From NCBI RefSeq assembly GCF_000010625.1, contig NC_010296.1:4320001-4352000 (forward strand): a stretch of 32,000 nucleotides of DNA, given 5' to 3'. Each line of letters starts with the position of its first letter. The stretch's first letter is position 1. The DNA is from Microcystis aeruginosa NIES-843 (GTDB lineage: Bacteria; Cyanobacteriota; Cyanobacteriia; Cyanobacteriales; Microcystaceae). Position numbers and translations under genes: made by a program. This document shows positions 1 to 26,742 of this stretch, piece after piece. Under the pieces are notes generated by a model, which was given only the letters and a program-made list of their open reading frames with translations, was not told where the DNA came from and searched no databases.

Positions 1-129
1 CTGGGTTGTAATAAACCTGCACCTGTCAGCATCCCACACCCCATCTTCCCACTTCCCCCGATTGAGTTAGCGGGTTCGGCTTCGATCTGTCAGAATACAA
101 GTATTGAAACAACCCTTTTAAGAGGCTTC

Positions 130-1308
130 ATGGTGGAAGTTAAAGTCGTCCCCCCGAAACGCAATTGGGTTCAGACGTGGTGGCAATCCCTGAATTCCTT
201 ATCCCGCTTACTGGTGATTGCTCTAGCTGCACCACTTGTCGTCCTGAATGTCTGGGCATTATCGGCAATTTTTGGCTATTTTGAATCTTTATTTGTTATT
301 TTACTGATAGCGGCCGTTCTATCTTTTCTCTTGGGTTATCCGGTGACTTGGTTGGAACGTCAGGGATTAAAACGGGGTTTAGCTGCGATCGTGGTTTCCC
401 TGATCACGATTTTAATTTTTGTGGCCGTGGGCATAACCCTAGTTCCCTTAGTCTTCACCCAAGCACAGCAATTTGTCAACAGATTGCCAGAATGGTTAGA
501 CTCGGGACAGCGCCAACTGATGCAACTAGATACCAAAATCGACACGATGAATCTACCGATTCCGATCAGTTTCGATGGTCTGATCGCTCAGTTTAACAGT
601 CGTTTAGGGGCAGAATTGCAAATTTTAGCGGGAAGAAGCGTTAATTTAGCCCTTAATCTCACCGTTTTTACTGTGGTGCGGGTGCTTGATGTGCTGCTAA
701 CCATTATCCTCACCTTTTATCTGCTTCTCCACAGTCCCGATATCTGGAGGAGTATTATCCAATGGTTGCCCAAACCCGTCCAACAACCCTTTTCCCTAAC
801 CCTACGCTTAAGTTTTCAGAATTACTTTGTCGGACAGGTGATTTGTGCCACCTGCATGGCCCTGGGATTAGTCACGGCATTTTTATCGATTAAAGTCCCT
901 TTTGGTCTCCTATTCGGTCTGTTGATTGGCACCATGGCTTTAATCCCTTTTGGGGGAACTGTAGGCATTGTCACGGTGACAGCTTTACTAGCTTTGCGCG
1001 ATATTGGTTTAGCTCTACAAGTTTTAGCCGTGGCTGTAGTGGTGCAGCAAATTGTCGAAAATGGCATTGCTCCCCGGATTTTGGGCAGTGTCACCGGGTT
1101 AAATCCCTTTTGGGTGTTGGTCTCGGTCTTGACGGGGGCGCGAGTGGGCGGTTTACTGGGGGTGATTGTCGCGGTTCCCATGGCAGTAATGATCAAGGAA
1201 GCTTTGGAGGTGATCCGTCAAGTGACACCAGAGGAGACAAAACACGGGATAATTAAACCCTCTCTCCCCCTAGAATCAGAATCCTCTAGCGAGGTGGTTT
1301 CTCGCTGA
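130..1308 (+). CDS. AI-2E family transporter (PerM-like permease)
   Basis: 392-aa ORF that is hydrophobic throughout with several predicted TM helices. Its length and C-terminal motifs (GTVGIV..., NGIAPRILG..., NPFWVLVSVL) are typical of the AI-2E/PerM family. The overlapping ORFs 348-596, 360-545 and 822-1196 are shadow frames. Confidence 0.8.
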   Translation: MVEVKVVPPKRNWVQTWWQSLNSLSRLLVIALAAPLVVLNVWALSAIFGYFESLFVILLIAAVLSFLLGYPVTWLERQGLKRGLAAIVVSLITILIFVAVGITLVPLVFTQAQQFVNRLPEWLDSGQRQLMQLDTKIDTMNLPIPISFDGLIAQFNSRLGAELQILAGRSVNLALNLTVFTVVRVLDVLLTIILTFYLLLHSPDIWRSIIQWLPKPVQQPFSLTLRLSFQNYFVGQVICATCMALGLVTAFLSIKVPFGLLFGLLIGTMALIPFGGTVGIVTVTALLALRDIGLALQVLAVAVVVQQIVENGIAPRILGSVTGLNPFWVLVSVLTGARVGGLLGVIVAVPMAVMIKEALEVIRQVTPEETKHGIIKPSLPLESESSSEVVSR

Positions 1309-1735
1309 AGAATGACTGACGGCATGATCTAGGGCGATGTGAGCAGTAATATTGGCCGGGATAAATCGGCAATTTTCTCGCAGGTTCTTGGCTTTTCTCC
1401 CTCGATCGAGTTATGATATCCATATTGGTAGATTAACTCCACTTGCCCTGATCGCCGTCCCTGGCGGATGCCTTGCTGGTCTCTGGGGCCTAGCTTATTG
1501 GGAGATTAGCTAACCAATTATCTCTAAACTCCGATAATTTTAAGAAAAGGTCAATGTCTATCCCGATAAATAAGCAAAAAATCGATATTTTGGTTAAATA
1601 GGCTACATTAACAGCCAGCTTTCTATCGTAAGCTCGAAGTTAAGACATAAAGTCAATATCACCCTCCGATTGCAATGAAAAAATGTTTGGATCGCTTAAG
1701 GTTTAAGCCTTTCAGACATTTTTTTTTGTGGATTG

Positions 1736-1770
1736 ATACTAAATCCAGTTATTAAAAACTGATTTAGTAT
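1736..1770. repeat. Minimal 35-bp palindromic member of a small MITE family (ATACTAAATCC...GATTTAGTAT)
   Basis: The sequence atactaaatccagttattaaaaactgatttagtat is a near-perfect hairpin. Its arms match the termini of the ~105-109-bp copies at 3920-4027, 15620-15724 and 17187-17295. Confidence 0.55.
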
Positions 1771-2024
1771 GACATGGACAAAAACCAACAGACCATGATC
1801 TGGAGAGATCGTCAAGAAAAGTATCAGAGTGAACTCTTGGAAAAGAATTGGTAAAATATAATTAGTAGGGAGAGTATTGCTGTTAATGTTTCGCTTTTTA
1901 ACGAGACGTTAACCAAGCTCAAAAGCAAAAAATAGCAGTAATTTGCCAAAAGCTCAAGGCCAATGGCTGACTGCTCTATACATCTCTCGTATTCTTTACT
2001 TGTCGAGTTCAACACGACCCCTTT

Positions 2025-2219
2025 ATGGAATCAAGCAACCCGTCAGGGAAGACTTCCGAACCTCCTAGTCATAGGTGGGCCAATTTACTCGGAACCATGA
2101 TCGCAATTCTGACCCTAACGTTACCCTTGTTAGCGATTGGATATAACTCCACGCCTAACTATACCGAAGAACCCCTTACCGGTAACACATCCTACTCCCT
2201 AACGAGGCAAATGAGGTGA
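2025..2219 (+). CDS. Hypothetical small membrane protein
   Basis: 64-aa ORF with one clear hydrophobic helix (LLGTMIAILTLTLPLLAIG). I recognise no family, so this is weak. Confidence 0.25.
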   Translation: MESSNPSGKTSEPPSHRWANLLGTMIAILTLTLPLLAIGYNSTPNYTEEPLTGNTSYSLTRQMR

Positions 2220-2380
2220 CAGAATTGAGATAGACGATTGCCAAAATAAAAATTTTTTTCTTCGTCCCGATCCCCCTTATGGGTAAAATTTGGATCGGAG
2301 TTGATCAAAGTGTGTTTTAATTTTGCTTGCGCTTTTAGGTGACTCTAAAGGCGCTATTGTCTTGTATTTGGAGAAAGCTT

Positions 2381-2890
2381 GTGGATTTATCGCGCATTCC
2401 TGCCCAACCGAAACCAGGTTTAATTAACGTTTTAGTGGAAATTACCGCCGGCAGTAAGAATAAATACGAGTTTGATAAGGATTTAAACGCCTTTGCTCTC
2501 GATCGCGTTCTCTATTCTTCGGTACAATATCCCTGTGATTATGGTTTTGTTCCCAATACCCTCGCCGATGACGGCGATCCTTTAGATGGTATGGTGATCA
2601 TGGATCAGCCTACTTTCCCCGGCTGTGTGATTACGGCGCGCCCTATTGGTATGTTAGAAATGATCGATGGTGGTGATCGCGATGAAAAAATCCTCTGTGT
2701 TCCCGCTAAAGATCCTCGTTATGCTGAGGTAAAATCCCTCAAAGATGTCTCTCCCCATCGCTTGCAGGAAATCGCCGAGTTTTTCAAAACCTATAAGAAT
2801 CTAGAGAAAAAAGTCACAGAAATTCTCGGTTGGAAAGATGTGGACGCAGTAACCGCTTTAGTTGAACAGTGTATTGCTGCTTATAAGTAA
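2381..2890 (+). CDS. ppa: Inorganic pyrophosphatase (family I)
   Basis: The translation (V/M)[33 protein letters not shown]...[45 protein letters not shown] is nearly collinear with cyanobacterial Ppa. I place the start at the GTG at 2381, in frame with the 2339 ORF-track start, because homologues begin at MDLSRIP. Confidence 0.93.
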
Positions 2891-2922
2891 GGTTTGCGGC
2901 AAAAAGTTTGTTGGTGGGGTTA

Positions 2923-3051
2923 GTTATCAGTTATCAGTTATCAGTTATCAGTTATCAGATGTGAGTTTTCAGTTCACTGATTACTGTTTACTGTTTACTG
3001 ATCACTGAAAAAAGCTTCTCCCTACACCCCACACCCCACACCCCACACCCC
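2923..3051. repeat. Cluster of STRR-like heptamer tandem repeats
   Basis: (GTTATCA)x5 lies at 2923-2957 and (TTTACTG)x~2.5 around 2983-2999. (ACACCCC)x4 at 3024-3051 ends 5 nt before the nanE-like ATG. Confidence 0.9.
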
Positions 3052-3056
3052 AATTT

Positions 3057-3740
3057 ATGCGAATAGAAACCTTAAAATCGGGTTTAATCGTCTCCTGTCA
3101 AGCGCCAGTGGAGTCATCTCTGCACGATCCTGTAATTATTGCCGCCATGGCTCATGCTTGCGTGGATAGGGGTGCTTGTGGGGTAAGAATTGATAGTCCC
3201 GCTCATCTGAAAGCCACCCGTCAACAATTGCCGGATATACCGATAATTGGACTCTGGAAACGCAATTATCCCGATTGTTCGGTATATATTACTCCCAAAT
3301 ATCAAGATGCTCTCGCCATTGCCGATGCGGGTGCCGATATAATTGCCTTGGATGCTACCCCCAGAAAGCGTCCTAATGATGAAAATTTAGCCACAATTAT
3401 CGATCGTATTCATCAGGAAACTGGTAAATTAGTCATGGCAGATATAGACTCGATCGAAAGTGCTATTTATGCCGTGGCAGCTGGTGCTGATATTGTCGGT
3501 ACAACTCTTTACGGTTACACAGAAGCAACTAAAAATCTGCCACCGCCGAGTTTTTCTTTCCTAGAAGAATTAGTTAATAAGTTGTCAGTTCCTGTTATCT
3601 GTGAAGGAGGAATATCGACTCCAACAGAAGCAAAAAAAGCCCTAGAAGTTGGTGCATATTCGGTAGTTGTTGGCACGGCAATTACAGGGATTGATTTAAA
3701 AACTACCGCTTTTTTACAAGGAATTTTATCAAAAGATTAA
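3057..3740 (+). CDS. nanE: Putative N-acetylmannosamine-6-phosphate 2-epimerase
   Basis: 227 aa. The opening GLIVSCQA, then ...GVRIDSP...IIGLWKRNYPDCSVYITP...ADIIALDAT...LVMADI...ADIVGTTLYGYT...PVICEGGISTP...AYSVVVGTAIT, matches the NanE TIM-barrel family pattern. Confidence 0.75.
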   Translation: MRIETLKSGLIVSCQAPVESSLHDPVIIAAMAHACVDRGACGVRIDSPAHLKATRQQLPDIPIIGLWKRNYPDCSVYITPKYQDALAIADAGADIIALDATPRKRPNDENLATIIDRIHQETGKLVMADIDSIESAIYAVAAGADIVGTTLYGYTEATKNLPPPSFSFLEELVNKLSVPVICEGGISTPTEAKKALEVGAYSVVVGTAITGIDLKTTAFLQGILSKD

Positions 3741-3919
3741 TGGGAGGGAAAAAACCAAAAAGTTTCGCCGCACCTCCTAAAATAGCGACAACCAAAGCGA
3801 TTAAAATCCGCCGGTTTGTGAATTGCTGATAGGCAATCCCTGCGGTCAATCCGTTAACTTTTTCGTCACTACAATGGATAAACCCGTTAACTTTTCTTAA
3901 CGTAACCATGTTTATTGTA

Positions 3920-4027
3920 ATACTAAATCCGTTGAGTATAGGTAACATATGAGGAGAGGCAAAAGACAATAGGCACTCATGCAAAACGGAGAGTAAATAA
4001 TCAGTTTTTAATAACCAGACTTAGTAT
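3920..4027. repeat. Small MITE-like element (108 bp)
   Basis: Its termini are ATACTAAATCC / (A)GACTTAGTAT. The internal sequence is shared with the copies at 15620-15724 and 17187-17295. Confidence 0.6.
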
Positions 4028-4057
4028 AATATGTCTTAGTAATAAAATCATCAAATT

Positions 4058-5107
4058 CTAACTGCGCCACCGTAAAATTTGTGCTTTAATGGGGTTGACA
4101 AAATCCCGTTTTTCTGCTTGAGATTTTTCGTATTCCTGCTTGAGGCGATAATACCATTTGGCCTGGGTATCGGCATCATCAATTAACATCAAAGCTGGAT
4201 GATAACTAAGTCCTTCCTGTTGTTTAATCACCACATCGCGATCCTGTTTGAGGAATTGTAGAGTTAAATAACGCAAAAGAGGGGTTAAAAATGCCAACCA
4301 AGGAATCGTATAGTATAAACTTTGATGGACTTCGCAGTGATTTTCATCGATGGGAGTAATTGCTGTAAAAGCACAGGCCAAATAGCGATCACCTCGTAGT
4401 ATTTCTGTACGCACCGAGGGCAATTCAAAAACAATTTCAATCGATACTTTACTACCCAAAATTTTATAAGGTTTCGCACTTACTGGCATATCATAGGGGG
4501 CAAGACGAAAACCGAGGGGAACAGGTTCGTATTGTTTTTCTTTGACCCGAAATTGGCGCGGACCGCTGCGCCACCACCAAGAAGTATGAACGTAGGGACC
4601 GTGGGCCGGATCCATCAATCCCACCACTGCATGGTCAATATTGCAGTCAAAAGTGATAGTTTCGGCTACTTTGGGGGTAAGTTTGCCAAAATCGGCAATA
4701 GTCGGCACAGGGGGCAGATTTTCTCGATTAATTTCTCTTTTTGAGTCTGCCGGAATAAACACCCAGATATGACCTTGTATTTCACGACAGGGATAACTGG
4801 TGACACAAATTCTGCTAATATCAAGGCGATCGTGTTCAGTTAATGAGGGGATTTCAGAACAAACGCCATCGCTAGTATTAAATTTCCAGCCATGATAGCA
4901 ACAGTATACCCCATCCCCTTCAATCCAGCCATGGTGCAGCGGAATGCCACGATGGGGGCAAATATCCCGCAATGCGAACACTTCTCCATCCTCTCTCCTG
5001 CCAACAACAATCGGTTCACCTAGCATTTTTTTGGCCATTAGCTGACCGGGTTTAAGTTTATTTGCCGGTGTGGCCACATACCAAAAGTCGCGCAGTAAGC
5101 TAGTCAT
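4058..5107 (-). CDS. Rieske [2Fe-2S] oxygenase, PaO/LLS1-like
   Basis: 349 aa. The Rieske motif CPHRGIPLHHG-x16-CCYHGWKF is present, followed by a C-terminal region typical of the pheophorbide a oxygenase (PaO)-like family in cyanobacteria. Confidence 0.85.
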   Translation of the reverse strand: MTSLLRDFWYVATPANKLKPGQLMAKKMLGEPIVVGRREDGEVFALRDICPHRGIPLHHGWIEGDGVYCCYHGWKFNTSDGVCSEIPSLTEHDRLDISRICVTSYPCREIQGHIWVFIPADSKREINRENLPPVPTIADFGKLTPKVAETITFDCNIDHAVVGLMDPAHGPYVHTSWWWRSGPRQFRVKEKQYEPVPLGFRLAPYDMPVSAKPYKILGSKVSIEIVFELPSVRTEILRGDRYLACAFTAITPIDENHCEVHQSLYYTIPWLAFLTPLLRYLTLQFLKQDRDVVIKQQEGLSYHPALMLIDDADTQAKWYYRLKQEYEKSQAEKRDFVNPIKAQILRWRS

Positions 5108-5298
5108 AGGATTTGTCTGGAGAGCTTCGATCGTTCATCCTATCATCAGAAATGAAGATTATGAGACTGGAAGCATAACTTTGCAGTAATTAGGAGGATG
5201 AGATTGCAGTAGGCAAGGCTGAAACCCCTATTCTCTCGTTGACGAAACTCTACTCCTCATCAATGGAAACATAACGCTTCAGTGAGTCCAGAAAATTT

Positions 5299-6720
5299 GG
5301 CTCTTCGTTACCCTTTATGCTAAATCAACATACAAGATGCCAAGATAACATACTTCTAACCCAAAAATTCCGAAAGTTTCTAAAGCCATAGCCTCTCCGT
5401 TTTATTAGTTTAAGTTTATTGTTGATTCCCTCGACCACCCCATTCGTTGTCCTTCGCTCGAAATAACTAATGATTTCTCCAAACCAGTTTCGGATTGTTT
5501 GACAACTCTTGGTAAAAACACTGGAGGATTTTGCCAACCATTCCGAGATGGATAGCAGTCCCTCTGTCGGATTCTTTGAGGTTTCATAAATCTTTCTGAA
5601 TTCTTCCTTTAATTTCTGCATCTTTTTCAAATTTGGGAATTTTTCTTTGATAGCTTCTAGTTTAATTTTTTGGGGTTCCGTTAAATCTTCTTCATTTTTT
5701 AACAGGCTATATTTACTTCGCTTTAAAACTTCTAGCTTCGCTTCTTTTTCCGCTTTCTGTTTTTTATTTTTCTGCGCTTCTACGGCTCTTTTTTCCGCTC
5801 TTCTCTGTTCGTCTAACTCTTGATTAATTTGTTTCATTACATGGAATCTATCGGCGACTACCTCGGCCGATGGCATCAATTCTTTCACCAAATTTTTATA
5901 GGGCAACCAAAGGTCTATGCTCACTTCTTCAATTTGCTCTAACACCTCTTTTCCCCACCCAGTAAGCGTTTCCCTCAACTCTTCTTGTGTTCGCTTCTCT
6001 AGAATAGCTATTAGTTTTCCCGTATCTAAATTTACTAAAACCGCACAGTAATTTTTTTGTCCTTTGACTAGAGCGATTTCATCAATTCCTAGCCTTTTTA
6101 ATTTCGATAAATCTGGCTCTGTAATTTCTTCGGCGATGTCCTCTACCATTCTTTGAATCTCTTCTTCCGTTACGTTATTTCTTCGGCTAACATTTAAAAT
6201 ATCTCCTTCTTTTAATTGTTCGAGTATATTCTCGGCTAGTCTTTTCGTATAGGTTCGTTTCTTGGCGACAAAATCTAACTCTTCGCTAAAGGGTCTCTGA
6301 CAATTACCGCACTTAAATTGACGACGATTAACCTGTAGGTACACTGGTTGTCCTGAGATTGGTAAATCTTTGACTAAATGTCGATGATTTTGGTGGAGTT
6401 TATCGCTCTCTAACCCACAACGAGGACAGGTTGCTTTTTTATTTTTCGATTCGACTGGTCAAACTATACCGATATTTTCTAGGTGTCGATAGCCTTGAAT
6501 ACAGGTTCCTTCTAGGTTCAAAAATTTGTCAAGTATCATAAGTAAAATAATCTCGTTTTTGGCTATTATATCAAATCTTAACTCGATTGTCTATCTTTTG
6601 GTATTAACCTGTTTGTGCCTTAAGTCCTTCCCTGTATGGATTTCAGCTACTTTTGAGCGTAGGCGCTCTCATCGAATTTTATTTTAAGTTAATTATTTGC
6701 ATAACAATTCCCGAAGAGCC
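5299..6720 (-). mobile_element. ISL3-family insertion sequence (1422 bp) with 8-bp target-site duplication
   Basis: The terminal inverted repeats are GGCTCTTCG... at 5299 and ...CGAAGAGCC ending at 6720. They are flanked by a perfect direct repeat GAAAATTT (5291-5298 and 6721-6728). The element carries an ISL3-type transposase frame. Confidence 0.9.
5325..6539 (-). pseudogene. ISL3 transposase interrupted by an in-frame TGA at codon 27
   Basis: Reading from the ATG at 6539 gives MILDKFLNLEGTCIQGYRHLENIGIV*PVESKNKKATCPRCG...QPVYLQVNRRQFKCGNCQRPF. This continues in the same frame into the 339-aa ORF 5325-6344. The stop is the TGA at 6459-6461 (minus strand). The zinc-finger N-terminus and the DRFHVMK region are typical of ISL3 transposases. 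Confidence 0.8.
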
Positions 6721-6897
6721 GAAAATTTGATGACCTTTCCTGCTGGAATTTTACAAAAGTTTACTTAAAATGATTCAGTTCTGTCTAATTATAGCGTTTC
6801 CTGTTCGCAAGAGGTACATTATCGATATTGAAAAGCTTAATCAGCAAAGGTTTAACTGTGCCACACAGGTATGAGAAACGCTATATAATCTGTTTGA

Positions 6898-7968
6898 TTA
6901 ATCTAAACTTTTCGTTTTCCTTAGATTTTCCTCTAATTTATCTAAACGTGGGATAATCCATTGATTTTTCCAGTATTTAATCAGTTGATTACGATCTAAA
7001 ATCTTCCATTGTAGTTGATTGGATTCTCCTAATAAATACTCTTGCCAATTCTCAGCTAGTGGACAACTATAATATCCTCTTTGCCAACCAATACTTAGCA
7101 TATCTTCTGAAAATCCTAGTTCTCTTAGTCCTTTTTTTAAAACTCTTAGTTTCCAATTTGGACCTTGACCAAATTTATAAGTATCAAAAATGGTTTCTGG
7201 AACGACTTGTTTAATTAATTCCCAACTTCCGTTAGCCGTTATATGTAAATGGCTTTGACCTTTTGTATAACCTATAAATTTCCAGTTCATTAAACGGTTA
7301 TATATTGCTGATTTTCCAAATGCTCCTAAAGTATCTATATAAACTAAATCAGCTTGTTTATTTTGTCCAGAAATAATGGATACTCTATTGTTATACTTTT
7401 CATAGAAGTGCTTTCTAACTTCAGGGAACATCAAACATAAAGCAATTAATTTACTGCTGAGAACTAGATTATAAGGAGGTACAGCACCTAAAATATAAGC
7501 AGTCATACAATTATATAATCTCTCTAGCTTTTGATCTTTTGTCCAAGTGATATACTGATCTCTAACTCCTAAACCAATAATTGGATCACTGAGTCCAAAA
7601 ATACCAATTAATTTATTATTTTGTTCATCAAAAACTAAAAAACGTATTCTTCTACCATAACCAGTTGTAACAGGGATTGACCAAAAAGAAGTAGCATAAG
7701 TCCAAAGTTCTCTTTGTTTCTGGGTGTTCACAACTTCTAAGTAAGGATTGATTTTAAGAATATTTATTTCTTCAGGTTTAGCTAAACAATTTTTAAATTC
7801 CTCCTCATATTTTAAACCTTTTGAGTTCGTATGTTGAGCTAATCGATTTTGCATAAATCGTAAATCATCAACTATTAACTTTTGAGAGTCAAAATCCCAT
7901 TCAACTCCATATTCAGATAACTTTGATAACAATTGATCTCGAACGTGATCTTTTTGGTGTTTTTTCAT
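6898..7968 (-). CDS. DUF4338-like protein (Druantia DruA-like domain)
   Basis: 356 aa. The core GRRIRFLVFDEQNNKLIGIFGLSDPIIGLGVRDQYITWTKDQKLERLYNCMTAYILGAVPPYNLVLSSKLIAL...VYIDTLGAFGKSAIYNRLMNWKFIGYTKG matches the DUF4338 pattern as I recall it (GRRLRYLV...G.LGFS..AW.L..RD.WIGW...NLAS..LAL...ETFVD...YRAANW..VG.T.G). Its ATG lies 2 nt after the HerA stop. The assignment is from memory and needs an HMM check. Confidence 0.55.
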   Translation of the reverse strand: MKKHQKDHVRDQLLSKLSEYGVEWDFDSQKLIVDDLRFMQNRLAQHTNSKGLKYEEEFKNCLAKPEEINILKINPYLEVVNTQKQRELWTYATSFWSIPVTTGYGRRIRFLVFDEQNNKLIGIFGLSDPIIGLGVRDQYITWTKDQKLERLYNCMTAYILGAVPPYNLVLSSKLIALCLMFPEVRKHFYEKYNNRVSIISGQNKQADLVYIDTLGAFGKSAIYNRLMNWKFIGYTKGQSHLHITANGSWELIKQVVPETIFDTYKFGQGPNWKLRVLKKGLRELGFSEDMLSIGWQRGYYSCPLAENWQEYLLGESNQLQWKILDRNQLIKYWKNQWIIPRLDKLEENLRKTKSLD

Positions 7969-7970
7969 GT

Positions 7971-9749
7971 TTAAAAATGGAACTCATCCGAGGATTGAAG
8001 ATTATTAGCATTTTGAAATTGACTGAATTCTGTAAACATCTGAACAAATAAAGGAGAACCCGTAAAAGACAAAGGGGAAACCGGACCGAGAAACATAAAC
8101 GGATATTGTTTATTACTTTGAGGGTCAACAAATGATTTGTATAAGCTTAAAGCCTGTTTATCACTTACTAATTCTTCAATTTGTCTGTATTCACTACCAG
8201 AAGTTAAACCATATCCAAAAGCGTAAAGTCTTAATTGACCGACAATTTCTTTATGTAAAGATGCAATTGTTTGAGTAATAAACATATAACCCAAGCCGTA
8301 TTTTCTTGTGGTTCTTACACCATCTACAAATGTTCTTGTTAGGTTGGACATTTCACTATTATCATCATTACCAAAAGAGGATTTAACAAAGCGATGAGCT
8401 TCATCAAGACAAATTAAACAGTTTAATTTTTTATCCTCTTTAAAGGCATTTTCTCCCGCTACTTTTAAAATTGTGCTAATCTCTTTAAGAATCAGTGCTT
8501 TGATTTCCTCATTATCTGCGAAAGTTGTACCCTCACCCTTAATATCTAAAAATACAATAGGCTTTTGCTCATCACTAGCAGATTTTTGAACAATATGCCA
8601 CAATGAGCTTCTATGATTACCTTGACTATCATTTTCAAGAAATAAATCTAATACAGGTTGCCAAATTTCTTGTTGAACTCTTTTAAATTCCCTTTCATTA
8701 TCTATAAGCTCTTTAAGAGTATCTTGTAAACGCTGTCTTGGCTGAGAACTAGCATAGATCCTTTGTAGAGCATTATTATCTTGTATTAATGACTGTAAGA
8801 CATTTAATAATAAGTCATCACCACCATTTTTTAGCTCTACTTTTTGATGGGATAAAATATCTCTAATAATTCGAGATACTTCATCAGAAGCATAGTCTTG
8901 ATTTTCTTTACCTCTAACTCCAATATTTCTATAAAACTCTGTTTTTAGTAAAAGAGAGCAAAATAAATTTACAGCATTATTTTTAGTTCCTAATCTAATT
9001 TGATTAGTTAAACGATAAACTTCAACTTTTCTACCTAACTTTCGGAGCGAGTCATGCAGTTTAAAGGGCAAATCTGTCTCACTTGCAAATTGATTTTGAG
9101 GATCTATGAAAATGATGCCCATATTTTTGTGTCTAGCATAACCCAGAAGCATATAAGCGGCTAAACCAGACTTACCAGAGCCACTTTTTCCAAAAACTCC
9201 GATATGATAAGCTTCTCCTGCTCCTCCTTCTCCTCTATCAAAATGTTTTAACCAAAGAGGCATTTTAACATCAGTAGCATAAGCATTACCTAAGTAAATA
9301 ATTTGATTTTTGTATTGCTCTAAAAGCTTATCTAAAATTTCATCTCGAACTGAAATAATAGGCGTACCCGTTGCCGGGGAAGTTCCTAACGTTCCTGCGG
9401 TGATTTTTCCATCTGGCGCAATACTAAAACAAGCCTGAACGTTTAATTTAGCTGTTCTCACATCTGCTTTTTCACTAAGATGAGGAAGTGAACCTCTACG
9501 CTTAATAATACCTCTAAAGGTTAAATCTTCATGCCAGCGATTTTGAGTTTCTATCTCACTAATTTGTCCGATAACCACTAAATTTTCTTGATCTTGCGGT
9601 TGAACCAGACAGACTAACTGCCCTAAATTTCTCTTTTTCTCACTTTTTTGATTAATATCTATAATAATTTCTGTCGTGTTACTCGGTGAACCAACGCTAC
9701 CGATGTTAAATTGATCTGAGTGATTGTTGAGTTTGTCAAGTAAATCCAT
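7971..9749 (-). CDS. HerA/FtsK-superfamily ATPase (DUF87-type, HerA-like)
   Basis: 592 aa. It has an N-terminal barrel-like region, Walker A GVFGKSGSGKSG and Walker B LICLDEAHRF, followed by YMFITQT...LRLYAFG. This is the HerA architecture. Confidence 0.8.
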   Translation of the reverse strand: MDLLDKLNNHSDQFNIGSVGSPSNTTEIIIDINQKSEKKRNLGQLVCLVQPQDQENLVVIGQISEIETQNRWHEDLTFRGIIKRRGSLPHLSEKADVRTAKLNVQACFSIAPDGKITAGTLGTSPATGTPIISVRDEILDKLLEQYKNQIIYLGNAYATDVKMPLWLKHFDRGEGGAGEAYHIGVFGKSGSGKSGLAAYMLLGYARHKNMGIIFIDPQNQFASETDLPFKLHDSLRKLGRKVEVYRLTNQIRLGTKNNAVNLFCSLLLKTEFYRNIGVRGKENQDYASDEVSRIIRDILSHQKVELKNGGDDLLLNVLQSLIQDNNALQRIYASSQPRQRLQDTLKELIDNEREFKRVQQEIWQPVLDLFLENDSQGNHRSSLWHIVQKSASDEQKPIVFLDIKGEGTTFADNEEIKALILKEISTILKVAGENAFKEDKKLNCLICLDEAHRFVKSSFGNDDNSEMSNLTRTFVDGVRTTRKYGLGYMFITQTIASLHKEIVGQLRLYAFGYGLTSGSEYRQIEELVSDKQALSLYKSFVDPQSNKQYPFMFLGPVSPLSFTGSPLFVQMFTEFSQFQNANNLQSSDEFHF

Positions 9750-9780
9750 TGTCTTTTTCCTGTAATTTGATGAAGATTGA

Positions 9781-10935
9781 TTAAGTTCTGTAAGATTGGG
9801 TCAACAATTGGAGAAAGTCAGGGTTATCACTAAATTGATATTGTACCACGGCTCTTAACGCTTCTAAACCATCACTAATACTTTTAGCCATCAGATCCGC
9901 TAAATATTGAGGATAAGGTTCTTTGATCTCTGTTGAAACAACTTGTTCTTTGATAGCTTTTAATACTTTGGCTAATTCAATTTCTGTATTAGCACAGCTT
10001 TCTTTCATTTCTATCCTATAAGCTGGCGACCATTGATAAGGTTTATAATAAGTAAAATATACTTTTCGGCTTTTAGGCAAAATAATAGCTTGGTTTAAGT
10101 CCTCTTTTATCTTGTCTCGCTTACCTTGAAAATCAAATTTACCTGAAACTGAAATATATAAATCGTTCCAAACTCGCTCTGTTTTTGTGGTTTGACCCAC
10201 AGGTAACGGTTTAGTAAATTCACCGGCATTTAAAATTAATGTCATGCTGGTTTTATCGTCAAGCTTGAGGTCAAAGTTTTTTAAAACACTTAAGCCAATT
10301 TCTTGAGAAGAATCATATTTAACCATATATACTATATTGGGATTGGTCATCGCTTTTTTAAGAGAATCTATCAAGCTAAACCTATTAATGATATCCCATG
10401 TAGCTTGTTGAAAATGCGGTTCATCCAACGTTGACATACTGGTTAAGCTGTTAATTCCGATAACTGGTGTTTGATGAGAACCATCGGCAATAATCACATC
10501 ATGTGGTGTTTGACTAATAACTAATAATTCTAAAGCTGTCATCGCTCCTCTAGTCACTTTAGGATTACTCTCAGAACTGTGCGGGAGAACATCTTGCCAA
10601 TTTTTGTATTGAACTGAACCCCATTTTCGCTGATCTTCTCTAACTAATCCTTCAACACCAACACCAACTGCAATTAAAGTATCAGCACCAATAGATTTTT
10701 CAATAGCTTGTCCACCGTCAACCGCTGCAACAGAAGGAATAGGTGGGTTTTCTAAATCGTCAACTCTACAAATTAAATCATTATCATCTAAGATTTGATG
10801 CAGGGTTTTTCTTTGTTGTTGTAATTCATTGAAAAGTGGCTTGATTTTTTCTGCTATTTTAGGAGCATCTTCCAGAATGTCTTCTAGTAATTCATCTGGC
10901 AAGTTAGCATAGTTATCATTTTTATTGTTAGTCAT
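9781..10935 (-). CDS. NurA-like nuclease
   Basis: 384 aa. It carries VAAVDGG (D73) and VIIADGSH (D151), about 78 aa apart, which resembles the two catalytic Asp motifs (xDGS ... LDGS) of NurA. It sits directly upstream of the HerA gene with a 31-nt gap, the canonical NurA-HerA arrangement. Confidence 0.6.
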   Translation of the reverse strand: MTNNKNDNYANLPDELLEDILEDAPKIAEKIKPLFNELQQQRKTLHQILDDNDLICRVDDLENPPIPSVAAVDGGQAIEKSIGADTLIAVGVGVEGLVREDQRKWGSVQYKNWQDVLPHSSESNPKVTRGAMTALELLVISQTPHDVIIADGSHQTPVIGINSLTSMSTLDEPHFQQATWDIINRFSLIDSLKKAMTNPNIVYMVKYDSSQEIGLSVLKNFDLKLDDKTSMTLILNAGEFTKPLPVGQTTKTERVWNDLYISVSGKFDFQGKRDKIKEDLNQAIILPKSRKVYFTYYKPYQWSPAYRIEMKESCANTEIELAKVLKAIKEQVVSTEIKEPYPQYLADLMAKSISDGLEALRAVVQYQFSDNPDFLQLLTQSYRT

Positions 10936-11101
10936 GTTTAGAAAATCATAAAAAAATAATCTAAAGGCCAGAAAATCACGGGCTTGATATTTTTAGCTCA
11001 CGACAGAGCGTTTTGTCTGACATACCGTAAATTTACCGAACATCAAGCCAGCTTGTCAGGTTTAGCTTTTGCCCGTTGCTGAAAGCTATCAAAATTAACT
11101 A

Positions 11102-11175
11102 TGGACGTAACTGGATTCGAACCAGTGACCCCATCGATGTCAACGATGTACTCTAACCAACTGAGCTATACGTCC
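11102..11175 (-). tRNA. tRNA-Val (anticodon GAC)
   Basis: The reverse complement GGACGTATAGCTCAGTTGGTTAGAGTACATCGTTGACATCGATGGGGTCACTGGTTCGAATCCAGTTACGTCCA folds as a cloverleaf. The acceptor stem is GGACGTA/TACGTCC, the D-loop AGTTGGTTA, the anticodon stem CATCG/CGATG with loop TTGACAT, and the T-arm ACTGG-TTCGAAT-CCAGT. CCA is not encoded. Confidence 0.9.
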
Positions 11176-11221
11176 GCACGGATCGCTATTATAACACGAT
11201 TGCTCCTAATTAGGCAAGCCC

Positions 11222-12157
11222 CTAGGCAGTAAATTGATAGCCAATTAACTTATAAATTAACTTGGCAGTGGTAAATTCCGAGACCACCGAATCACTAATC
11301 GGGGCCAATTCCATCACATCGCAGCCAATCACCTGATGAGTTTGGAAAAGACGACGGAGAAAGCCTAGGGTTTGATGCCAACTTAACCCCCCCGGTTCAG
11401 GTGTTCCCACCCCCGGAATTAAAGCCGGATCTATGCCATCCACGTCTATGGTTAAAAATACCTTCTCGGTGCTAATTTTGGCGATCGCTTTTTCGATCCA
11501 ATTCGGATCACCGGCGATATCTCGATCCCAAACCACGGGAATCTGTTGTTTAGCAATTAATTCGGCTTCTTCCCGACAAATAGCCCGAATTCCCACGGGT
11601 AAGGTCGGTAAACCCATTTCTAACACCCGACGCATCACACAGGCGTGGTTATGGTGCGATCCTTCGTACTCAAAACGCATATCGCCATGGGCATCAATTT
11701 GAACCACCGTAAAAGGTTCCGATAAAGCCTGTCGGTAAGCTTGTACTACTCCCGTAGTGATAGCGTGTTCACCCCCGACGGCGACGACAAATTTATCATC
11801 GGCAATTAAACGAGAAACTGTAGCTGTGGTGACGGCTAACATCTCCTCGGCGGACAATTGCGGTTGTTGACGGGTATCGGCGATCGCATCATGGGTATAG
11901 ATGCCCACTTCTAAACAGGTTTCCCTCTTAAGTTCCTCATCATAGGCTTCCAATTGTTGGGAAGCGGTAATCACCGCCGCCGGTCCAGTTTCACAACCCT
12001 TGCGATAGGTGGTGGTGGCCTCGTAGGGAATCGGCAGGATCACGGCCTTAGCTGTGGCGTAAGTGGCGATCGCTTCACTCCCTAAAAATTGTTCGCTACC
12101 GGTGGCGCAAGACAATAACATGGGCAAGTCACAGAAAATTTTAGTCCAACTTTCCAT
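11222..12157 (-). CDS. speB: Arginase-family ureohydrolase (agmatinase/guanidine hydrolase-like)
   Basis: 311 aa with the ureohydrolase metal-binding motifs GGEHAIT, QIDAHGD, SHHNH and TIDVDGIDP. The true start may be the internal MLLSCATG Met. The symbol reflects family-level assignment only. Confidence 0.85.
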   Translation of the reverse strand: MESWTKIFCDLPMLLSCATGSEQFLGSEAIATYATAKAVILPIPYEATTTYRKGCETGPAAVITASQQLEAYDEELKRETCLEVGIYTHDAIADTRQQPQLSAEEMLAVTTATVSRLIADDKFVVAVGGEHAITTGVVQAYRQALSEPFTVVQIDAHGDMRFEYEGSHHNHACVMRRVLEMGLPTLPVGIRAICREEAELIAKQQIPVVWDRDIAGDPNWIEKAIAKISTEKVFLTIDVDGIDPALIPGVGTPEPGGLSWHQTLGFLRRLFQTHQVIGCDVMELAPISDSVVSEFTTAKLIYKLIGYQFTA

Positions 12158-13291: not shown

Positions 13292-13846
13292 ATGGAAGAA
13301 ACAGTTCACGACAATTTTTTCAAAAAATTTACTGTGGTAACAGCTACTAGATCTGCTGCAGATTATCTCCCGGAGTCATCGGGTGTTTACGCTTTCTATC
13401 ATGCGTTTGATTTTTCTGAGCATGATTTGTGTGGTAATATCAAGACTCGCTTGCAAAATACAGTGTTTAAAACAAAATTTTCTGAGAATAATGATAGAAG
13501 CAAATTTACCATAGATATCTGTGGAGAGCCAGTTAGTTTATCTCAGAATATGGAATATTTTCTTCAAGAAATTTCTCAACCAAAGGAGCGAAGAATTCTG
13601 AAAGAGTTTCTAATTTCATGTAGCATTTTACAGCATCCAGAATATATTGGCACGGCAAACAATTTAAGAATGAGATTTCTTCAACACTTGGAAAGAGAGG
13701 ATGGTTTTTTATCAAAACATGGAAATTCAAGATCGAATAACGAATTTTTGTTTATTTCCTTTCCTTGTCCGAAAAATATTTCTAGACAATTGGAAAGCTT
13801 ATTAATTCAATTATGTCAACCCAAATTCAATACTCAAAGGAGTTAA
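13292..13846 (+). CDS. GIY-YIG-superfamily nuclease-like protein with atypical insertion
   Basis: 184 aa. It shows SGVYAFY (GIY-like), then EYIGTANNLRMRFLQH (YIG, then R and H), then FLFISF...QLESLLIQLCQPKFN (catalytic Glu and terminal Asn). About 80 aa separate the GIY-like and YIG strands instead of ~10. Alternatively the true first strand is FLISCSI, just upstream of YIG. Confidence 0.55.
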   Translation: MEETVHDNFFKKFTVVTATRSAADYLPESSGVYAFYHAFDFSEHDLCGNIKTRLQNTVFKTKFSENNDRSKFTIDICGEPVSLSQNMEYFLQEISQPKERRILKEFLISCSILQHPEYIGTANNLRMRFLQHLEREDGFLSKHGNSRSNNEFLFISFPCPKNISRQLESLLIQLCQPKFNTQRS

Positions 13847-13849
13847 AAT

Positions 13850-15460
13850 ATGGAACTAGATAATCAGTCTCCAGAAACTATTGAATATAAAGCAATCACT
13901 GGTAAGTTTGGTGAAGTTAGATACTTTATAACAACCTTAGAACAAAGTGATGCAGTAGAAAACATTCGATTTGCTGACGAGATACAAGGCAGCTGGAGCT
14001 TCTCCGAAAGAGTCCAGAGAAAACTCGATGAAAAAAGAGCGGAAACAGAAATATTTTCCTACTTAGCTCAAGGGGGAATTAGGTTTTTTAATTCAATTGT
14101 AGTCGTCCTTTTGCCAAACTCAAATGAGCAACGAGAGTTCTGGGATTTTTCTACAGTTAGTAGTCAAGGTAAAACTGTAGAAAAATGGGTTAATTTAAAA
14201 CTGTACAAAAACGTTGCTAGAATTGTCATTGATGGACAACATAGATTACTTTCTCTAAAAAGATACTGGAATGCTCACACAGGCAAAGAACCATTAAATT
14301 CTCAACAGTTAAAAGATAGCTTTGATTGCTCTGAAACCTTTGATATACCAGTTGTTTACTTAGTATTTAGAGAACTTGGAAGGGTAGGCTATAGCAATGC
14401 AAGCGAAACTATTAGAGATGATATTATCAAAGCGACTCGTAATATTTTTACAGTTATAAACAAAACTGCAAAATCTATTGATAAACAAACTCAATTATTG
14501 CTAGATGACAGTAAAATATCAGCATTAATTCCCAGAAAAATTTTGGAAGAAAAAGTGCTTGAAGACAAATATGTTAAATGGTCTTCTACAAACAGTTTAA
14601 ATCAAGCAGATCCTTATCTAACTACACTAAATTTAATTAGTGAATGTACTATGGAAATTTTAAAAGACTCCCCGCAAGCTTTAAAAAAATCATTTAATTC
14701 ACCTAATGAGCGACAAATGGCTTTAAAAGATTACTATGATTCTCATCCTAATTTGTCACAAATAGGCACAAAAGCTGTACTTAATTGGTTTTTTAACGAA
14801 CTTCAACCATTTAAGGATTGGATATCACAGCTAAATTATTTAGAGGTAGATGTGCCGATTCAACCAGATCAACCGCAGCTGAAACCTAGCCAGAAAGCAG
14901 CGATAAAAAGGTTACGGCAATCCAGTATTTTATACACAGTTTTGGGACAAAAAATACTCTTTTTTGCAGTTTCGAGATATTTACTTAGAATAAGAAAAGA
15001 GTATCGGATTACCGCCACTCTTAGCGCTATCTCAGATAGTATTAAGAAAATGGATCAAGAAGGTTTTTTTCAAAGAAACCAACCACACTGGTCTAATATC
15101 ATAGTACAGCCTAATGAAAATCTGAGCATTCTTACTAAAGGTTCTGGAGCCGATAAATGTGTAGAACTTGTCAAAATAATATTATCTGATACCTCTGATG
15201 GTGTAAGAGAGCTAATAAAAAAGACCAAAGAGGAAATTAGTCCTGATGTTAACTGGAATGAACATTTAATTTCTAAATGGAAAAAAGAGTTTCATGTCAT
15301 CCTACCTAGAGTAGATTTGATTGATGAGCAACTACAAGAATCGTCTGAATCGGAGGATTTATTTTCTGAAGTTAGAGAGAAGCTAGACTCTTTTGAAGAA
15401 GAAGAAAACGAATTTGCTAAAATTGAATACGATGGGGATATTTTTCAAGAAAATGAATAA
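13850..15460 (+). CDS. DGQHR-domain protein (DndB-like, ParB/Srx fold)
   Basis: 536 aa with the exact motif VIDGQHRLLSLKRYW, followed by IFTVINKTAKSI (the F..xN..K element seen after DGQHR in DndB-type proteins). It has a strongly acidic C-terminal tail. It starts 3 nt after the upstream stop, with AGGAG inside the upstream gene's end. Confidence 0.7.
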   Translation: MELDNQSPETIEYKAITGKFGEVRYFITTLEQSDAVENIRFADEIQGSWSFSERVQRKLDEKRAETEIFSYLAQGGIRFFNSIVVVLLPNSNEQREFWDFSTVSSQGKTVEKWVNLKLYKNVARIVIDGQHRLLSLKRYWNAHTGKEPLNSQQLKDSFDCSETFDIPVVYLVFRELGRVGYSNASETIRDDIIKATRNIFTVINKTAKSIDKQTQLLLDDSKISALIPRKILEEKVLEDKYVKWSSTNSLNQADPYLTTLNLISECTMEILKDSPQALKKSFNSPNERQMALKDYYDSHPNLSQIGTKAVLNWFFNELQPFKDWISQLNYLEVDVPIQPDQPQLKPSQKAAIKRLRQSSILYTVLGQKILFFAVSRYLLRIRKEYRITATLSAISDSIKKMDQEGFFQRNQPHWSNIIVQPNENLSILTKGSGADKCVELVKIILSDTSDGVRELIKKTKEEISPDVNWNEHLISKWKKEFHVILPRVDLIDEQLQESSESEDLFSEVREKLDSFEEEENEFAKIEYDGDIFQENE

Positions 15461-15855: not shown

Positions 15856-16119
15856 ATGACTGTAAAAGCTAGTAGCCAGTTGGATATATTTGTTATGGCA
15901 TTAATATCCGGTGTTGTTCACAGTGATCCCGACATTCTAGGGGGAACCCCTGTTTTTGTAGGAACTCGTGTGCCGATGAGAACCCTACTTGATTATCTTG
16001 AGGCTGGTGATTCATTAGAGGTATTTCTAGACCATTTTCCCAGTGTCAGTCGAGAACAGGCGATCTCAGCCCTTGAATTAGCAAAGGAAATGTTGACAGC
16101 CTATGCGAATCCTGCTTGA
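15856..16119 (+). CDS. DUF433-family antitoxin-like protein
   Basis: DPDILGGTPVFVGTRVPMRTLLDYLEAGDSLEVFLDHFPSVSREQAISALE is the typical DUF433 core. The start may be the ATG at 15895. It overlaps the next gene by 17 nt. Confidence 0.8.
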   Translation: MTVKASSQLDIFVMALISGVVHSDPDILGGTPVFVGTRVPMRTLLDYLEAGDSLEVFLDHFPSVSREQAISALELAKEMLTAYANPA

Positions 16120-16429
16120 TGAATGCGCCCCACGCCCGTTAAAGCGTGAGCTTGCCGATTACGAGGTATGCACAGTTGTTGAGATGGGATGGTCAGGGAA
16201 AAAGAACGGTGAGTTGCTGAGGCTGATGAGTCAGGAGGGTTTCACGATTCTCCTCACTACAGATCAAAATTTGCGTTATCAGCAAAATTTACAGCAAGCT
16301 GGAGTGGCAGTTATTGTTCTTGTAGCAACCAGCAACAAACTTTCTGACTTACTTCCCCTAATGCCAGATGCCTGTAGCGTATTAGATAAAGTCTCTCCAG
16401 GAGAAGTGATTGAAGTTGGAGGCTCCTGA
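16103..16429 (+). CDS. DUF5615 (PIN-like/Mut7-C-like) toxin-like protein
   Basis: 108 aa opening with MRILLDECAPRPL, then ILLTTDQNLRYQQNL. This is the usual partner of DUF433 genes. Confidence 0.75.
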   Translation: MRILLDECAPRPLKRELADYEVCTVVEMGWSGKKNGELLRLMSQEGFTILLTTDQNLRYQQNLQQAGVAVIVLVATSNKLSDLLPLMPDACSVLDKVSPGEVIEVGGS

Positions 16430-18207: not shown

Positions 18208-18557
18208 TTAATTTTCGGCTTCATTTTCTAAAATTTCCTGTAATTGTGAACGCAATGGAGTTAGATTATTTTCAATCGTCCGCCAAGCAATTGCCAATTC
18301 TACCCGAAAATATTCATGAAAAATGACATTTCGCATATCTCCCATTAAACGCCAAGGAATTTGAGAATAACGCAATTGTACCTCACTAGGAATATTTCTA
18401 GAGCCTCACCAATAATTCCTAAATTATAAAGAACTGCTTTAAGAGTCACTCGATTTGAGCTAAAATCTTCAAAGGTCATATTAGCCGTCCATTCCAAGAT
18501 TTCATCAATGGATTCAATAATATCTTGAAGACGAAGTTGCCAATCTCTAAAAGGCAT
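18208..18557 (-). pseudogene. HepN (DUF86) toxin gene, frameshifted
   Basis: The N-terminal 70 aa are in one frame. The conserved remainder, (S)RNIPSEVQLRYSQIPWRLMGDMRNVIFHEYFRVELAIAWRTIENNL...AEN*, continues in another frame to the stop at 18208. The shift lies near 18395-18410 (gaggct/ctagaaat). Confidence 0.75.
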
Positions 18558-18837
18558 TAATCACATCCTTTAATACAGGTTGTCGTAAATGTTCTTTTAA
18601 AGAATCTTGAGTACCTAAATCAACAGAACATCCTAATATATCTTCTAAGTAAAGTCGTACCTCGATAAACTCAAATAACCCTACCGCTTTACTAAATTCT
18701 ACCAATAAATCTACATCACTGTCAAAACGTGCTTCATCCCTTGCTACTGAACCAAATAGAGACAGAGATTTTACCCCTAGTTTTTCTAATTGTTCTCGGT
18801 GTTTCGCGAGAATTGTTAGTACCTCATCTCGTTTCAT
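18547..18837 (-). CDS. MNT-type nucleotidyltransferase antitoxin
   Basis: 96 aa with LFGSVARDEARFDSDVDLLV (the GS-x-D-x-D motif). It overlaps the HepN start by 11 nt. Confidence 0.85.
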   Translation of the reverse strand: MKRDEVLTILAKHREQLEKLGVKSLSLFGSVARDEARFDSDVDLLVEFSKAVGLFEFIEVRLYLEDILGCSVDLGTQDSLKEHLRQPVLKDVINAF

Positions 18838-26505: not shown

Positions 26506-26742
26506 ATGAACATTGAACAAGTTATCATTAAAAACCTAAGAAAACTTCCCTTAGAAAAACAACAAGAAGTGTTATCCTTCACCGAATCTCTCACCTCAAG
26601 AATTTCCCTCCCTTCCCCAGATTATAGTCTCACTCCCCAGGAAAAAGCTCAAAAATGGCAGAAAGTAATCGCTAAACTTCCTAAAACAAGTGCGAATTTA
26701 CCTGATGAAGCTTTACACCGTGACACTATGTATGAAGACTAA
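26506..26742 (+). CDS. VapB-type antitoxin (DUF2281-like)
   Basis: MNIEQVIIKNLRKLPLEKQQEVLSFTESL is the typical N-terminus. Its stop overlaps the toxin ATG by 1 nt. Confidence 0.65.
   Translation: MNIEQVIIKNLRKLPLEKQQEVLSFTESLTSRISLPSPDYSLTPQEKAQKWQKVIAKLPKTSANLPDEALHRDTMYED

Follow-up and report, generated by a model that had tools for sequence, protein, structure and literature searches.

Three adjacent genes in a 32,000-nucleotide (nt) stretch of Microcystis aeruginosa NIES-843 (contig NC_010296.1, positions 4,320,001 to 4,352,000 of the forward strand, hereafter the window) raise the question of whether they work as one system and, if so, whether that system defends the cell or serves it in some other way. 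A first-pass annotation, made from the letters of the window alone, had read them as a NurA-like nuclease gene (gene 1), a HerA-like ATPase gene (gene 2) and a gene of the DUF4338 or DruA family (gene 3), and had proposed that they form a horizontally acquired defence system not described before. Two open questions meet at this trio: how DruA works, for we know of no mechanism for this signature protein of Druantia type I, and what NurA-HerA does in bacteria. Our comparisons leave little room for doubt that the three genes form one functional module. On balance we lean towards reading it as a mobile, restriction-like defence module directed against phage or plasmid DNA, in which HerA and NurA would make up a motor-nuclease and DruA its specificity or regulatory subunit.

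The association was surveyed by scanning one genome per species with a NurA alignment, which gave 61 loci; the trio genes were then sought in the six-frame open reading frames (ORFs) of these loci with hidden Markov models from purpose-built alignments. druA adjoins nurA-herA in 58 of the 61 loci, the other three being cut by a contig end, and the nurA-herA pairing recurs across the loci save for a few in which herA is deleted, missing or cut off. The synteny survey that the first-pass annotation had suggested therefore came out in its favour, in many phyla. The trio recurs in more than ten of them, its carriers including Cyanobacteria, Chloroflexota, Patescibacteria, Gamma-, Alpha- and Deltaproteobacteria, Bdellovibrionales, Actinomycetota (Streptomyces and Leifsonia among them), Rhodothermales, Zixibacteria and others. 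The gene order is nurA-herA-druA in Cyanobacteria and druA-nurA-herA in most other phyla, with a convergent druA in several actinobacteria. Pairwise identities of DruA are strongly correlated with those of NurA and of HerA (r = 0.92 and 0.88 respectively, Mantel p <= 0.001), the value for NurA against HerA being 0.96.

A complementary sample was drawn from metagenomes, and comprised the best 80 of at least 549 confirmed DruA relatives among the 600 pattern matches listed; it is thus biased towards relatives of gene 3. Twenty-one of these 80 loci were too short to assess, and the remaining 59 comprised 48 linked to NurA/HerA, nine canonical Druantia type I loci with DruB-E and two in which DruA had no recognised partner. 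Even in this biased sample, then, NurA-HerA is a major genomic home of the DruA family, and DruA genes like gene 3 lie mostly beside NurA-HerA, not in Druantia. The same picture emerged from separate look-ups in Geitlerinema sp. PCC 7407, Planktothrix agardhii, a metagenome-assembled Chloroflexi genome and Parcubacteria. The DruA proteins of Geitlerinema and Chloroflexi are 59–63% identical to gene 3, and the NurA and HerA proteins encoded next to them have essentially no BLAST similarity to those of the window; the Geitlerinema-type HerA matches the PADLOC model for DndH at 1.9e-11. Additional NurA/HerA size classes were found beside DruA in the metagenomes. DruA has thus been joined to several NurA-HerA lineages, a pattern that modular conflict systems typically show and that argues strongly for a functional connection.

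The assignment of gene 1 to NurA is weak by sequence and clear by predicted fold. Its match to the Pfam NurA family (PF09376; E = 0.019, 14.9 bits) fails the 21-bit cut-off, and no NCBIfam model matches either gene 1 or gene 3; many gene 1 homologues (35–85% identity) carry PF09376, and NCBI names homologues NurA. The ten best matches of its AlphaFold2 model (pLDDT 86.7) in a Foldseek search of the PDB are all NurA chains, with E = 3e-11 to 7e-8, among them Sulfolobus solfataricus NurA (2ygk, 3.3e-11), the Thermococcus kodakarensis HerA-NurA complex (9x1m, 7e-11) and Pyrococcus furiosus NurA (3tal), and the next match after them is TdpB (E = 1.6e-5), the NurA-like subunit of a system discussed below. 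Sequence similarity in fold alignments of the trio with characterised HerA-NurA proteins is very low, at about 12–13%. Residues D73, E136, D151 and H154 are invariant across 45 homologues, in an Asp-Glu-Asp-His pattern, and D73 aligns in a profile alignment with the Asp of the AVDG motif of P. furiosus NurA; these four are conserved residues of metal-binding type and putatively catalytic. We therefore regard gene 1 as a predicted NurA-family nuclease, which bears out the earlier reading, and the DGG and DGS motifs on which that reading drew are indeed 78 residues apart. A match of gene 1 to the PADLOC model PDC-M60C (E = 5.7e-4) was rejected, since genes 2 and 3 match no PDC-M60 model and the trio is thus not a form of that candidate system.

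Gene 2 passes the Pfam cut-off for DUF87 (PF01935; E = 1.2e-11, 45.6 bits against a cut-off of 23.2 bits), matches the PADLOC HerA model at E = 1.4e-11 and has intact Walker A and B motifs, and so the call of HerA holds. G187, G190–K193 and D449–E450 are invariant in 15 family members. Compared with the PDB as a single sequence it gives marginal matches only, and a profile was needed: the family profile matches 9c1m (4.5e-9), 8wiv (1.1e-8), S. solfataricus HerA 4d2i (1.5e-7), TdpA 8wet (2e-7) and 8xau (9e-7). There are also weak matches to VirB4, TraC and CedD. We presume from these similarities that this HerA-family ATPase acts as a hexameric DNA translocase. No Sir2 or DUF4297 domain was found in genes 1 and 3 with Pfam and PADLOC models.

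Gene 3 is the most securely classified of the three as judged by its scores, matching Pfam DruA (PF14236) at 5e-69 and 233.1 bits (cut-off 27) over profile positions 10–297 of 297, and PADLOC DruA1 at 1.8e-85 and 285.5 bits, as its identification with DUF4338 had led one to expect. It contains all of the family motifs GYGRRxRFLV, RD, LGAxPPYN..KL and SxYNRL..IGYT, which are kept from cyanobacteria to the DruA of plasmid-borne Druantia type I in a family of about 1,670 clusters at 50% identity. In the AlphaFold2 model (pLDDT 87.5) a small alpha/beta domain at the N terminus precedes a GNAT-like core, and the C terminus forms a long helix. Its Foldseek matches in the PDB are nearly all GNAT acyltransferases, but weak (best E = 7.5e-3, TM 0.42–0.57 per target), and the DruA profile has zero matches among PDB sequences even at E = 10; DUF4338 has been independently assigned as a GNAT-like domain (PMC10853773). 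Segments reminiscent of GNAT motifs A and B are conserved throughout the family, but the window protein has SS in the motif-A-like loop, against GG in the family consensus. On these weak fold matches the core of DruA is predicted to adopt a GNAT-like fold, any catalytic activity being putative. In some actinobacteria DruA bears an N-terminal helix-turn-helix (HTH) of XRE type.

The three ORFs are co-oriented and packed just as first described, with gaps in the ORF list of 31 nt between nurA and herA and 2 nt between herA and druA, and all the motifs quoted for the three proteins are present in the sequence with the spacing claimed for them (Table 1). The only non-coding stretch upstream of the trio lies between nurA and a gene for tRNA-Val (11102-11175), which adjoins it. 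A single weak sigma-70-like match occurs upstream of nurA at 11059-11030, and a scan for promoters and terminators at the trio found such sites no more commonly than in shuffled sequence.

Table 1. Features of the trio in the window, by position (position 1 is the first letter of the 32,000 nt)
Feature	Position	Strand	Description
nurA (gene 1)	9781..10935	-	384 amino acids (aa), intact ORF; predicted NurA-family nuclease, RNase H-like fold
herA (gene 2)	7971..9749	-	592 aa, intact ORF; HerA/FtsK-superfamily ATPase
druA-like gene (gene 3)	6898..7968	-	356 aa, intact ORF; DUF4338/DruA family
Intergenic region, tRNA-Val to nurA	10936..11101	-	presumed operon promoter
NurA DGG motif	10711-10719	-	D73 codon 10717-10719
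NurA DGS motif	10477-10485	-	D151 codon 10483-10485
HerA Walker A, GKSGSGKS	9168-9191	-	read from sequence
HerA Walker B, LDEAHRF	8388-8408	-	read from sequence
DruA GRRIRFLV	7633-7656	-	family motif
DruA RDQYITW	7543-7563	-	RD at 7558-7563
DruA NLVLSSKLIAL	within 7438-7488	-	stretch resembles GNAT motif A
DruA motif-B-like stretch	7264-7314	-	GNAT-like

Composition and nucleotide conservation both bear on whether the trio has moved between genomes. The block is more AT-rich than its surroundings, as had been noted, with a GC content of 0.33 overall (0.31–0.36 across it) compared to 0.43–0.48 in the housekeeping flanks and 0.397 for the whole window; among 56 loci of the surveyed genomes, 46 have a trio poorer in GC than its flanks, the median difference being -6 points. 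The further claim that the block lacks the HIP1 motif (GCGATCGC) is true but unspecific. The window holds 13 sites against 0.19 expected by chance, all of them at 11481 or beyond, and the HIP1-free region 1-11480 includes native-looking housekeeping genes of 43–48% GC as well as the trio, hence the absence of HIP1 is not diagnostic of the block. When the window is compared with other cyanobacterial orders (Planktothrix, Cylindrospermum, Microcoleus, Aphanizomenon, Rivularia and Dapis), homology is confined to the three genes and stops no more than a few tens of bases from where they end; the best matching span, approximately 6932-10938, shows about 81% identity at the nucleotide level. Where a conserved residue has degenerate codons, the same codon is used in 65.6% of cases compared to 55% predicted from codon usage; synonymous sites are thus unsaturated, which favours exchange between orders over vertical inheritance from a distant ancestor. 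In some lineages the trio is apparently being lost: herA is internally deleted in Argonema antarcticum (L019) and Okeania sp. (L022), the former retaining a 544-aa ORF that fuses HerA to DruA. The trio also occurs on some IMG/VR contigs. Together the composition, the limits of the conserved block and the codon data sustain the earlier view that the genes were horizontally acquired, and the trio looks horizontally mobile. As a separate observation, one protein (P0040) is apparently an N-terminal fragment of NurA fused to DruA.

The neighbour census yielded no universal fourth gene. The only recurring neighbours are methyltransferase or restriction-modification (R-M) genes, which are joined to the operon in about 20% of loci, plus Mre11-Rad50 at two loci. 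Ten genome loci have a type IIG restriction-methyltransferase gene of about 1060 aa (PADLOC 6.5e-200) directly against the operon, with a start/stop overlap or a gap of no more than 6 nt at nine and a gap of 166 nt at the remaining one. Patescibacteria carry this gene on the upstream side of druA, and Actinomycetota, Chloroflexota and Eremiobacterota on the downstream side of herA. In a hot-spring lineage a Dam-like D12 methylase gene follows herA (L103, L104 and L113) and overlaps its stop codon, and in three further loci N6_N4 methylase genes lie 25–630 nt from the trio. Contigs of the hot-spring lineage also carry a gene for a 523-aa DEAD/ResIII helicase upstream of druA (L103, L108 and L113), and a gene for a 169-aa protein lies between helicase and druA in L113 and upstream of druA in L105, which suggests that the operon extends to as many as six genes in this lineage.

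Several characterised systems share parts with the trio. In solved complexes of archaeal and Deinococcus origin a HerA hexamer takes up double-stranded DNA at a free end and feeds it to a NurA dimer for degradation. These HerA-NurA resection complexes (Sulfolobus, Pyrococcus, Thermococcus, Deinococcus radiodurans and Thermus) consist of the same two families, encoded by adjacent co-oriented genes, and are the best structural matches of the trio, agreeing with it in NurA fold, in the Asp/Glu/Asp/His positions and in the HerA Walker motifs; both are at times linked to Mre11-Rad50. The trio differs in its obligate DUF4338/DruA component, which goes unmentioned in descriptions of HerA-NurA, in its recruitment of methyltransferase or R-M genes in many lineages, in its foreign composition and in its patchy, shuffled distribution. 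With Druantia type I (DruABCDE) it shares DruA, gene 3 being a full-length homologue 33.5% identical over 97% of its length to the DruA of a Ralstonia plasmid, and in both systems DruA accompanies a large ATP-driven DNA motor, although in the trio the part of the motor falls to a HerA ring, and the nuclease NurA is a separate protein. Neither the window, in which the largest ORF is 592 aa, nor the trio loci contain DruB, DruC, DruD or DruE (the DUF1998 helicase). The 'Druantia protein' label applied by the Prokaryotic Genome Annotation Pipeline (PGAP) is therefore misleading at trio loci, and our results correct the automatic annotation 'Druantia anti-phage system protein DruA' for these genes.

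Sir2-HerA and DUF4297-HerA are known anti-phage systems, and like the trio they combine a HerA-family hexameric ATPase with an effector in a compact operon; the 8xau, 8wiv and 9c1m chains matched by the gene 2 profile belong with this comparison. In the trio, however, the effector is NurA, not a Sir2 NADase or a DUF4297 nuclease, and there is an extra DruA subunit. A similar three-gene logic is found in TdpABC, a phosphorothioate-dependent defence system comprising a HerA-like TdpA and a NurA-like TdpB (An et al. 2025, cited in PMC12914056; PDB 8wet/8wfd), where the third gene, as that citation presents it, gives self/non-self information. TdpC is there described as a DNA phosphorothioation enzyme, whereas the third protein of the trio is of the GNAT-like DUF4338 type and is not similar to it, and Pfam and PADLOC models detected no DndC- or TdpC-like gene in the trio operon. 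Some variants of DndFGH carry a DUF4338 domain fused to DndF (PMC10853773) and so, like the trio, associate a DUF4338/GNAT-like domain with a HerA/FtsK-type motor (DndH); in the trio, by contrast, DruA is free-standing, and the DndF kinase-like core, DndG and the link to phosphorothioation are lacking. PADLOC matched only separate parts of the trio (HerA, DruA1) and no trio-specific system, and no paper linking NurA with DruA or Druantia, or DUF4338 with NurA-HerA, was found in the literature searched, which covered few subscription-journal papers. Within these libraries the assertion that no system combining NurA-HerA with a DruA-like protein had been described therefore stands, and none of the observations that the first-pass annotation had named as contradicting its proposal was made. 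The trio is probably an undescribed motor-effector system built on HerA, with one subunit in common with Druantia type I.

If the trio is a defence module, HerA-NurA would, by analogy with the archaeal and Deinococcus complexes, load on free DNA ends and degrade the DNA, and DruA would decide when, or on which DNA, this motor-nuclease acts. DruA might sense a feature of the invader, or might acyl-modify a protein or nucleic-acid target. A regulatory role of this kind would suit its GNAT-like fold, its small N-terminal domain and the XRE-type HTH that it bears in some actinobacteria, and DruA is the only part of the trio found also in Druantia type I and in FtsK-like loci. In lineages bearing a methyltransferase, methylation may add self-protection, and where the trio stands bare, as in the window, a circular chromosome without free ends could protect itself. 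TdpABC, on the description cited above, offers a direct precedent for a HerA-like protein and a NurA-like protein acting with a third, self-marking gene.

The case for defence is circumstantial. The R-M and methyltransferase genes, the composition and the shuffling of modules speak for the conflict system first proposed, and a role in repair is a live rival to it. Where the first-pass annotation had proposed a check for enrichment in defence islands, the flanks in other genomes are mostly unrelated housekeeping singletons and not such islands, with a minority of other neighbours (a few HTH regulators, serine recombinases at three loci, and R-M genes). Further points weigh on the same side. The window's own copy of the trio has no methyltransferase gene next to it; the trio is retained in genome-reduced Patescibacteria; and three Microcystis genomes have it at one and the same chromosomal position. 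Nor is it a classical tRNA genomic island, as a repeat of the 3' end of tRNA-Val and direct or inverted repeats around the block were sought and none was found, and there is no integrase. The weakness of the GNAT matches of DruA and the SS in its motif-A-like loop likewise count against the role assigned to it.

The strongest rival, which we consider unlikely, is that the trio is a module for double-strand-break repair or recombination, in which HerA-NurA would resect ends in preparation for homologous recombination, as in archaea and Deinococcus, and DruA would be a regulatory acyltransferase or loader, replacing Mre11-Rad50 or acting alongside it. Mre11-Rad50 follows herA in 2 of the 58 trio loci, in Anaerolineae and Rhodothermales genomes (L026 and L027), forming five-gene DruA-NurA-HerA-Mre11-Rad50 operons, and the nearest NurA relative without DruA (40% identical, L005) sits in a canonical NurA-HerA-Mre11-Rad50 operon; both findings also tell against defence. 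One trio locus (L004) lies beside dnaX-recR-recO, and the housekeeping neighbours, the persistence in Patescibacteria and the fixed site in Microcystis would all suit repair genes, as would the report that loss of a HerA homologue in Thermus leads to ultraviolet and heat sensitivity (PMC5448004). No mre11 or rad50 is present in the window. Repair accounts poorly for a low GC content relative to flanks in most loci, for cross-order homology of about 81% identity that stops at the gene boundaries, for the decay of herA in some cyanobacteria and the shuffling of modules, for DNA methyltransferase or type IIG R-M genes of three unrelated classes having been recruited into or beside the operon, and for a third gene held in common with an anti-phage system. 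The phenotypes of bacterial nurA and herA mutants are moreover mild: deleting either gene in Deinococcus or Thermus has a modest effect on damage resistance or even raises it, and the role in repair has been called 'controversial' (PMC9960219). An argument that Thermus HerA acts as a barrier to DNA uptake was dropped, as the published mutant shows reduced transformation.

It is very unlikely that the trio is instead a mobile element's own DNA machinery, pumping or processing DNA so that the element can be transferred, replicated or packaged. HerA is a member of the FtsK/VirB4-type superfamily of pumps and has weak VirB4, TraC and CedD matches, the trio is found on some IMG/VR contigs, the serine recombinases flank three loci, and composition and codon data indicate mobility. 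However, the genes around the trio in the window and in most loci include none for a relaxase, a coupling protein, a capsid, a terminase or replication, the conserved and transferred unit is just three genes, and a nuclease fits degradation better than transfer. That druA is an orphan remnant of Druantia type I beside an unrelated nurA-herA pair, as NCBI's naming of its homologues and their 33–39% identity to true Druantia DruA might suggest, is refuted for practical purposes by the synteny statistics (adjacency in 58 of 61 loci and r = 0.88–0.92), alongside the 2-nt gap, the second NurA-HerA lineage and the lack of DruB-E in the window.

If the trio does serve in defence, the system is widespread in Cyanobacteria, including bloom-forming Microcystis and Planktothrix, in Chloroflexota, in Actinomycetota and in bacteria of the candidate phyla radiation. 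Whole bacterial lineages of NurA-HerA carry DruA as a third partner, and it may be hypothesised that a large share of NurA-HerA in bacteria serves immunity or is under the control of DruA. For the study of DruA itself, a trio of three genes is far more tractable than Druantia type I with its five genes and roughly 10 kb.

DruA also occurs in other settings, which share as a common thread an ATP-driven machine working on DNA. Plasmids of Ralstonia and Nitrosococcus carry it in textbook DruA-E operons and Meiothermus beside a DruE-like helicase gene, these proteins being 33–39% identical to gene 3. On plasmids of Haloplanus (L080) and Hymenobacter (L081), DruA-like proteins of 705 and 1052 aa respectively are encoded near very large FtsK/SpoIIIE-type ATPase genes; in the Haloplanus plasmid the DruA-like and FtsK-type genes are co-directional in one run, with a DruE-like helicase gene on the opposite strand. 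DUF4338 thus also keeps company with pumps of the FtsK/HerA superfamily outside NurA-HerA. A further, metagenomic locus (L147, 944-6802) encodes an 850-aa protein with Ser/Thr-kinase and ORC/Cdc6-like ATPase regions, a 357-aa protein, a DruA of 422 aa and a convergent N6_N4 DNA methylase. Free-standing DUF4338 genes are found in Pelagibacter phage Mosig (L079, 4617-5915) and on IMG/VR contigs of 134–152 kb (L182, L184 and L185), with 25–28% identity to gene 3 and no NurA or HerA beside them in these four contigs, and proteins of the giant viruses Faunusvirus, Yasminevirus and Dasosvirus match the DruA model by fold, at E down to 2e-15. The viral proteins may be counter-measures, or may represent an independent use of the enzyme.

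A bolder reading, improbable in our view, is that DruA is a GNAT-fold enzyme that places an acyl-type mark on nucleic acid, notably on host DNA, much as the methyltransferase does in R-M. It would draw on the fact that DruA is the one component common to several motor-nuclease systems and that viruses carry stand-alone copies, and the Mom protein of phage Mu is a GNAT-fold protein that modifies DNA. Were it true, NurA-HerA-DruA would represent a new kind of restriction system based on an acyl mark, as by extension would Druantia type I, and the free-standing DUF4338 proteins encoded by giant viruses and by large genomes of cyanophage and pelagiphage type would serve as mark-copying counter-measures.

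The immediate surroundings of the trio had been taken as a sign of horizontal acquisition, on account of a nearby tRNA gene, an insertion sequence (IS) and toxin-antitoxin (TA) modules, and this argument survives only in part. tRNA-Val is indeed adjacent, but the IS is strain-specific, the TA-like genes lie at least 5 kb from the trio, and neither an integrase nor an attachment site was found. The site in Microcystis reads Rieske-protein gene, trio, tRNA-Val and agmatinase-family gene; the window is 99% identical to Microcystis genomes, with the same locus in AP019314.1, and searches that started from the agmatinase and Rieske proteins on either side led only to the same arrangement or to very short contigs. 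The IS is an ISL3 element at approximately 5300-6720, just downstream of druA, with a transposase gene at 5325-6539 on the minus strand (DDE_Tnp_ISL3, 4.5e-68) whose N-terminal zinc-finger part runs upstream through an in-frame TGA. It is missing at the same site in Microcystis ichthyoblabe (L016), and must therefore be a recent strain-specific insertion. The TA-like genes (15856-16429, 18547-18837, 26742-27194 and 29860-30153) comprise a DUF433/PIN-like pair, two MNT-type nucleotidyltransferases, one of which matches PADLOC PDC-S09 at 3e-27, and a PIN protein.

A second islet of low GC content (about 33%) lies at 13292-15460 on the plus strand, where genes for a 184-aa protein with weak similarity to GIY-YIG and a 536-aa DndB-like protein (Pfam DndB, 1.3e-11) are found. 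Neither protein has a PADLOC match, and the pair, which other Microcystis contigs (L193 and L194) retain next to the agmatinase-family gene, may be another uncatalogued DNA-targeting pair. Finally, a gene for an AI-2E-family transporter lies near the trio both in the window (130-1308, 5.6 kb away) and in Geitlerinema sp. PCC 7407 (L008, 9503-10618, directly after druA), a proximity that is probably coincidental.

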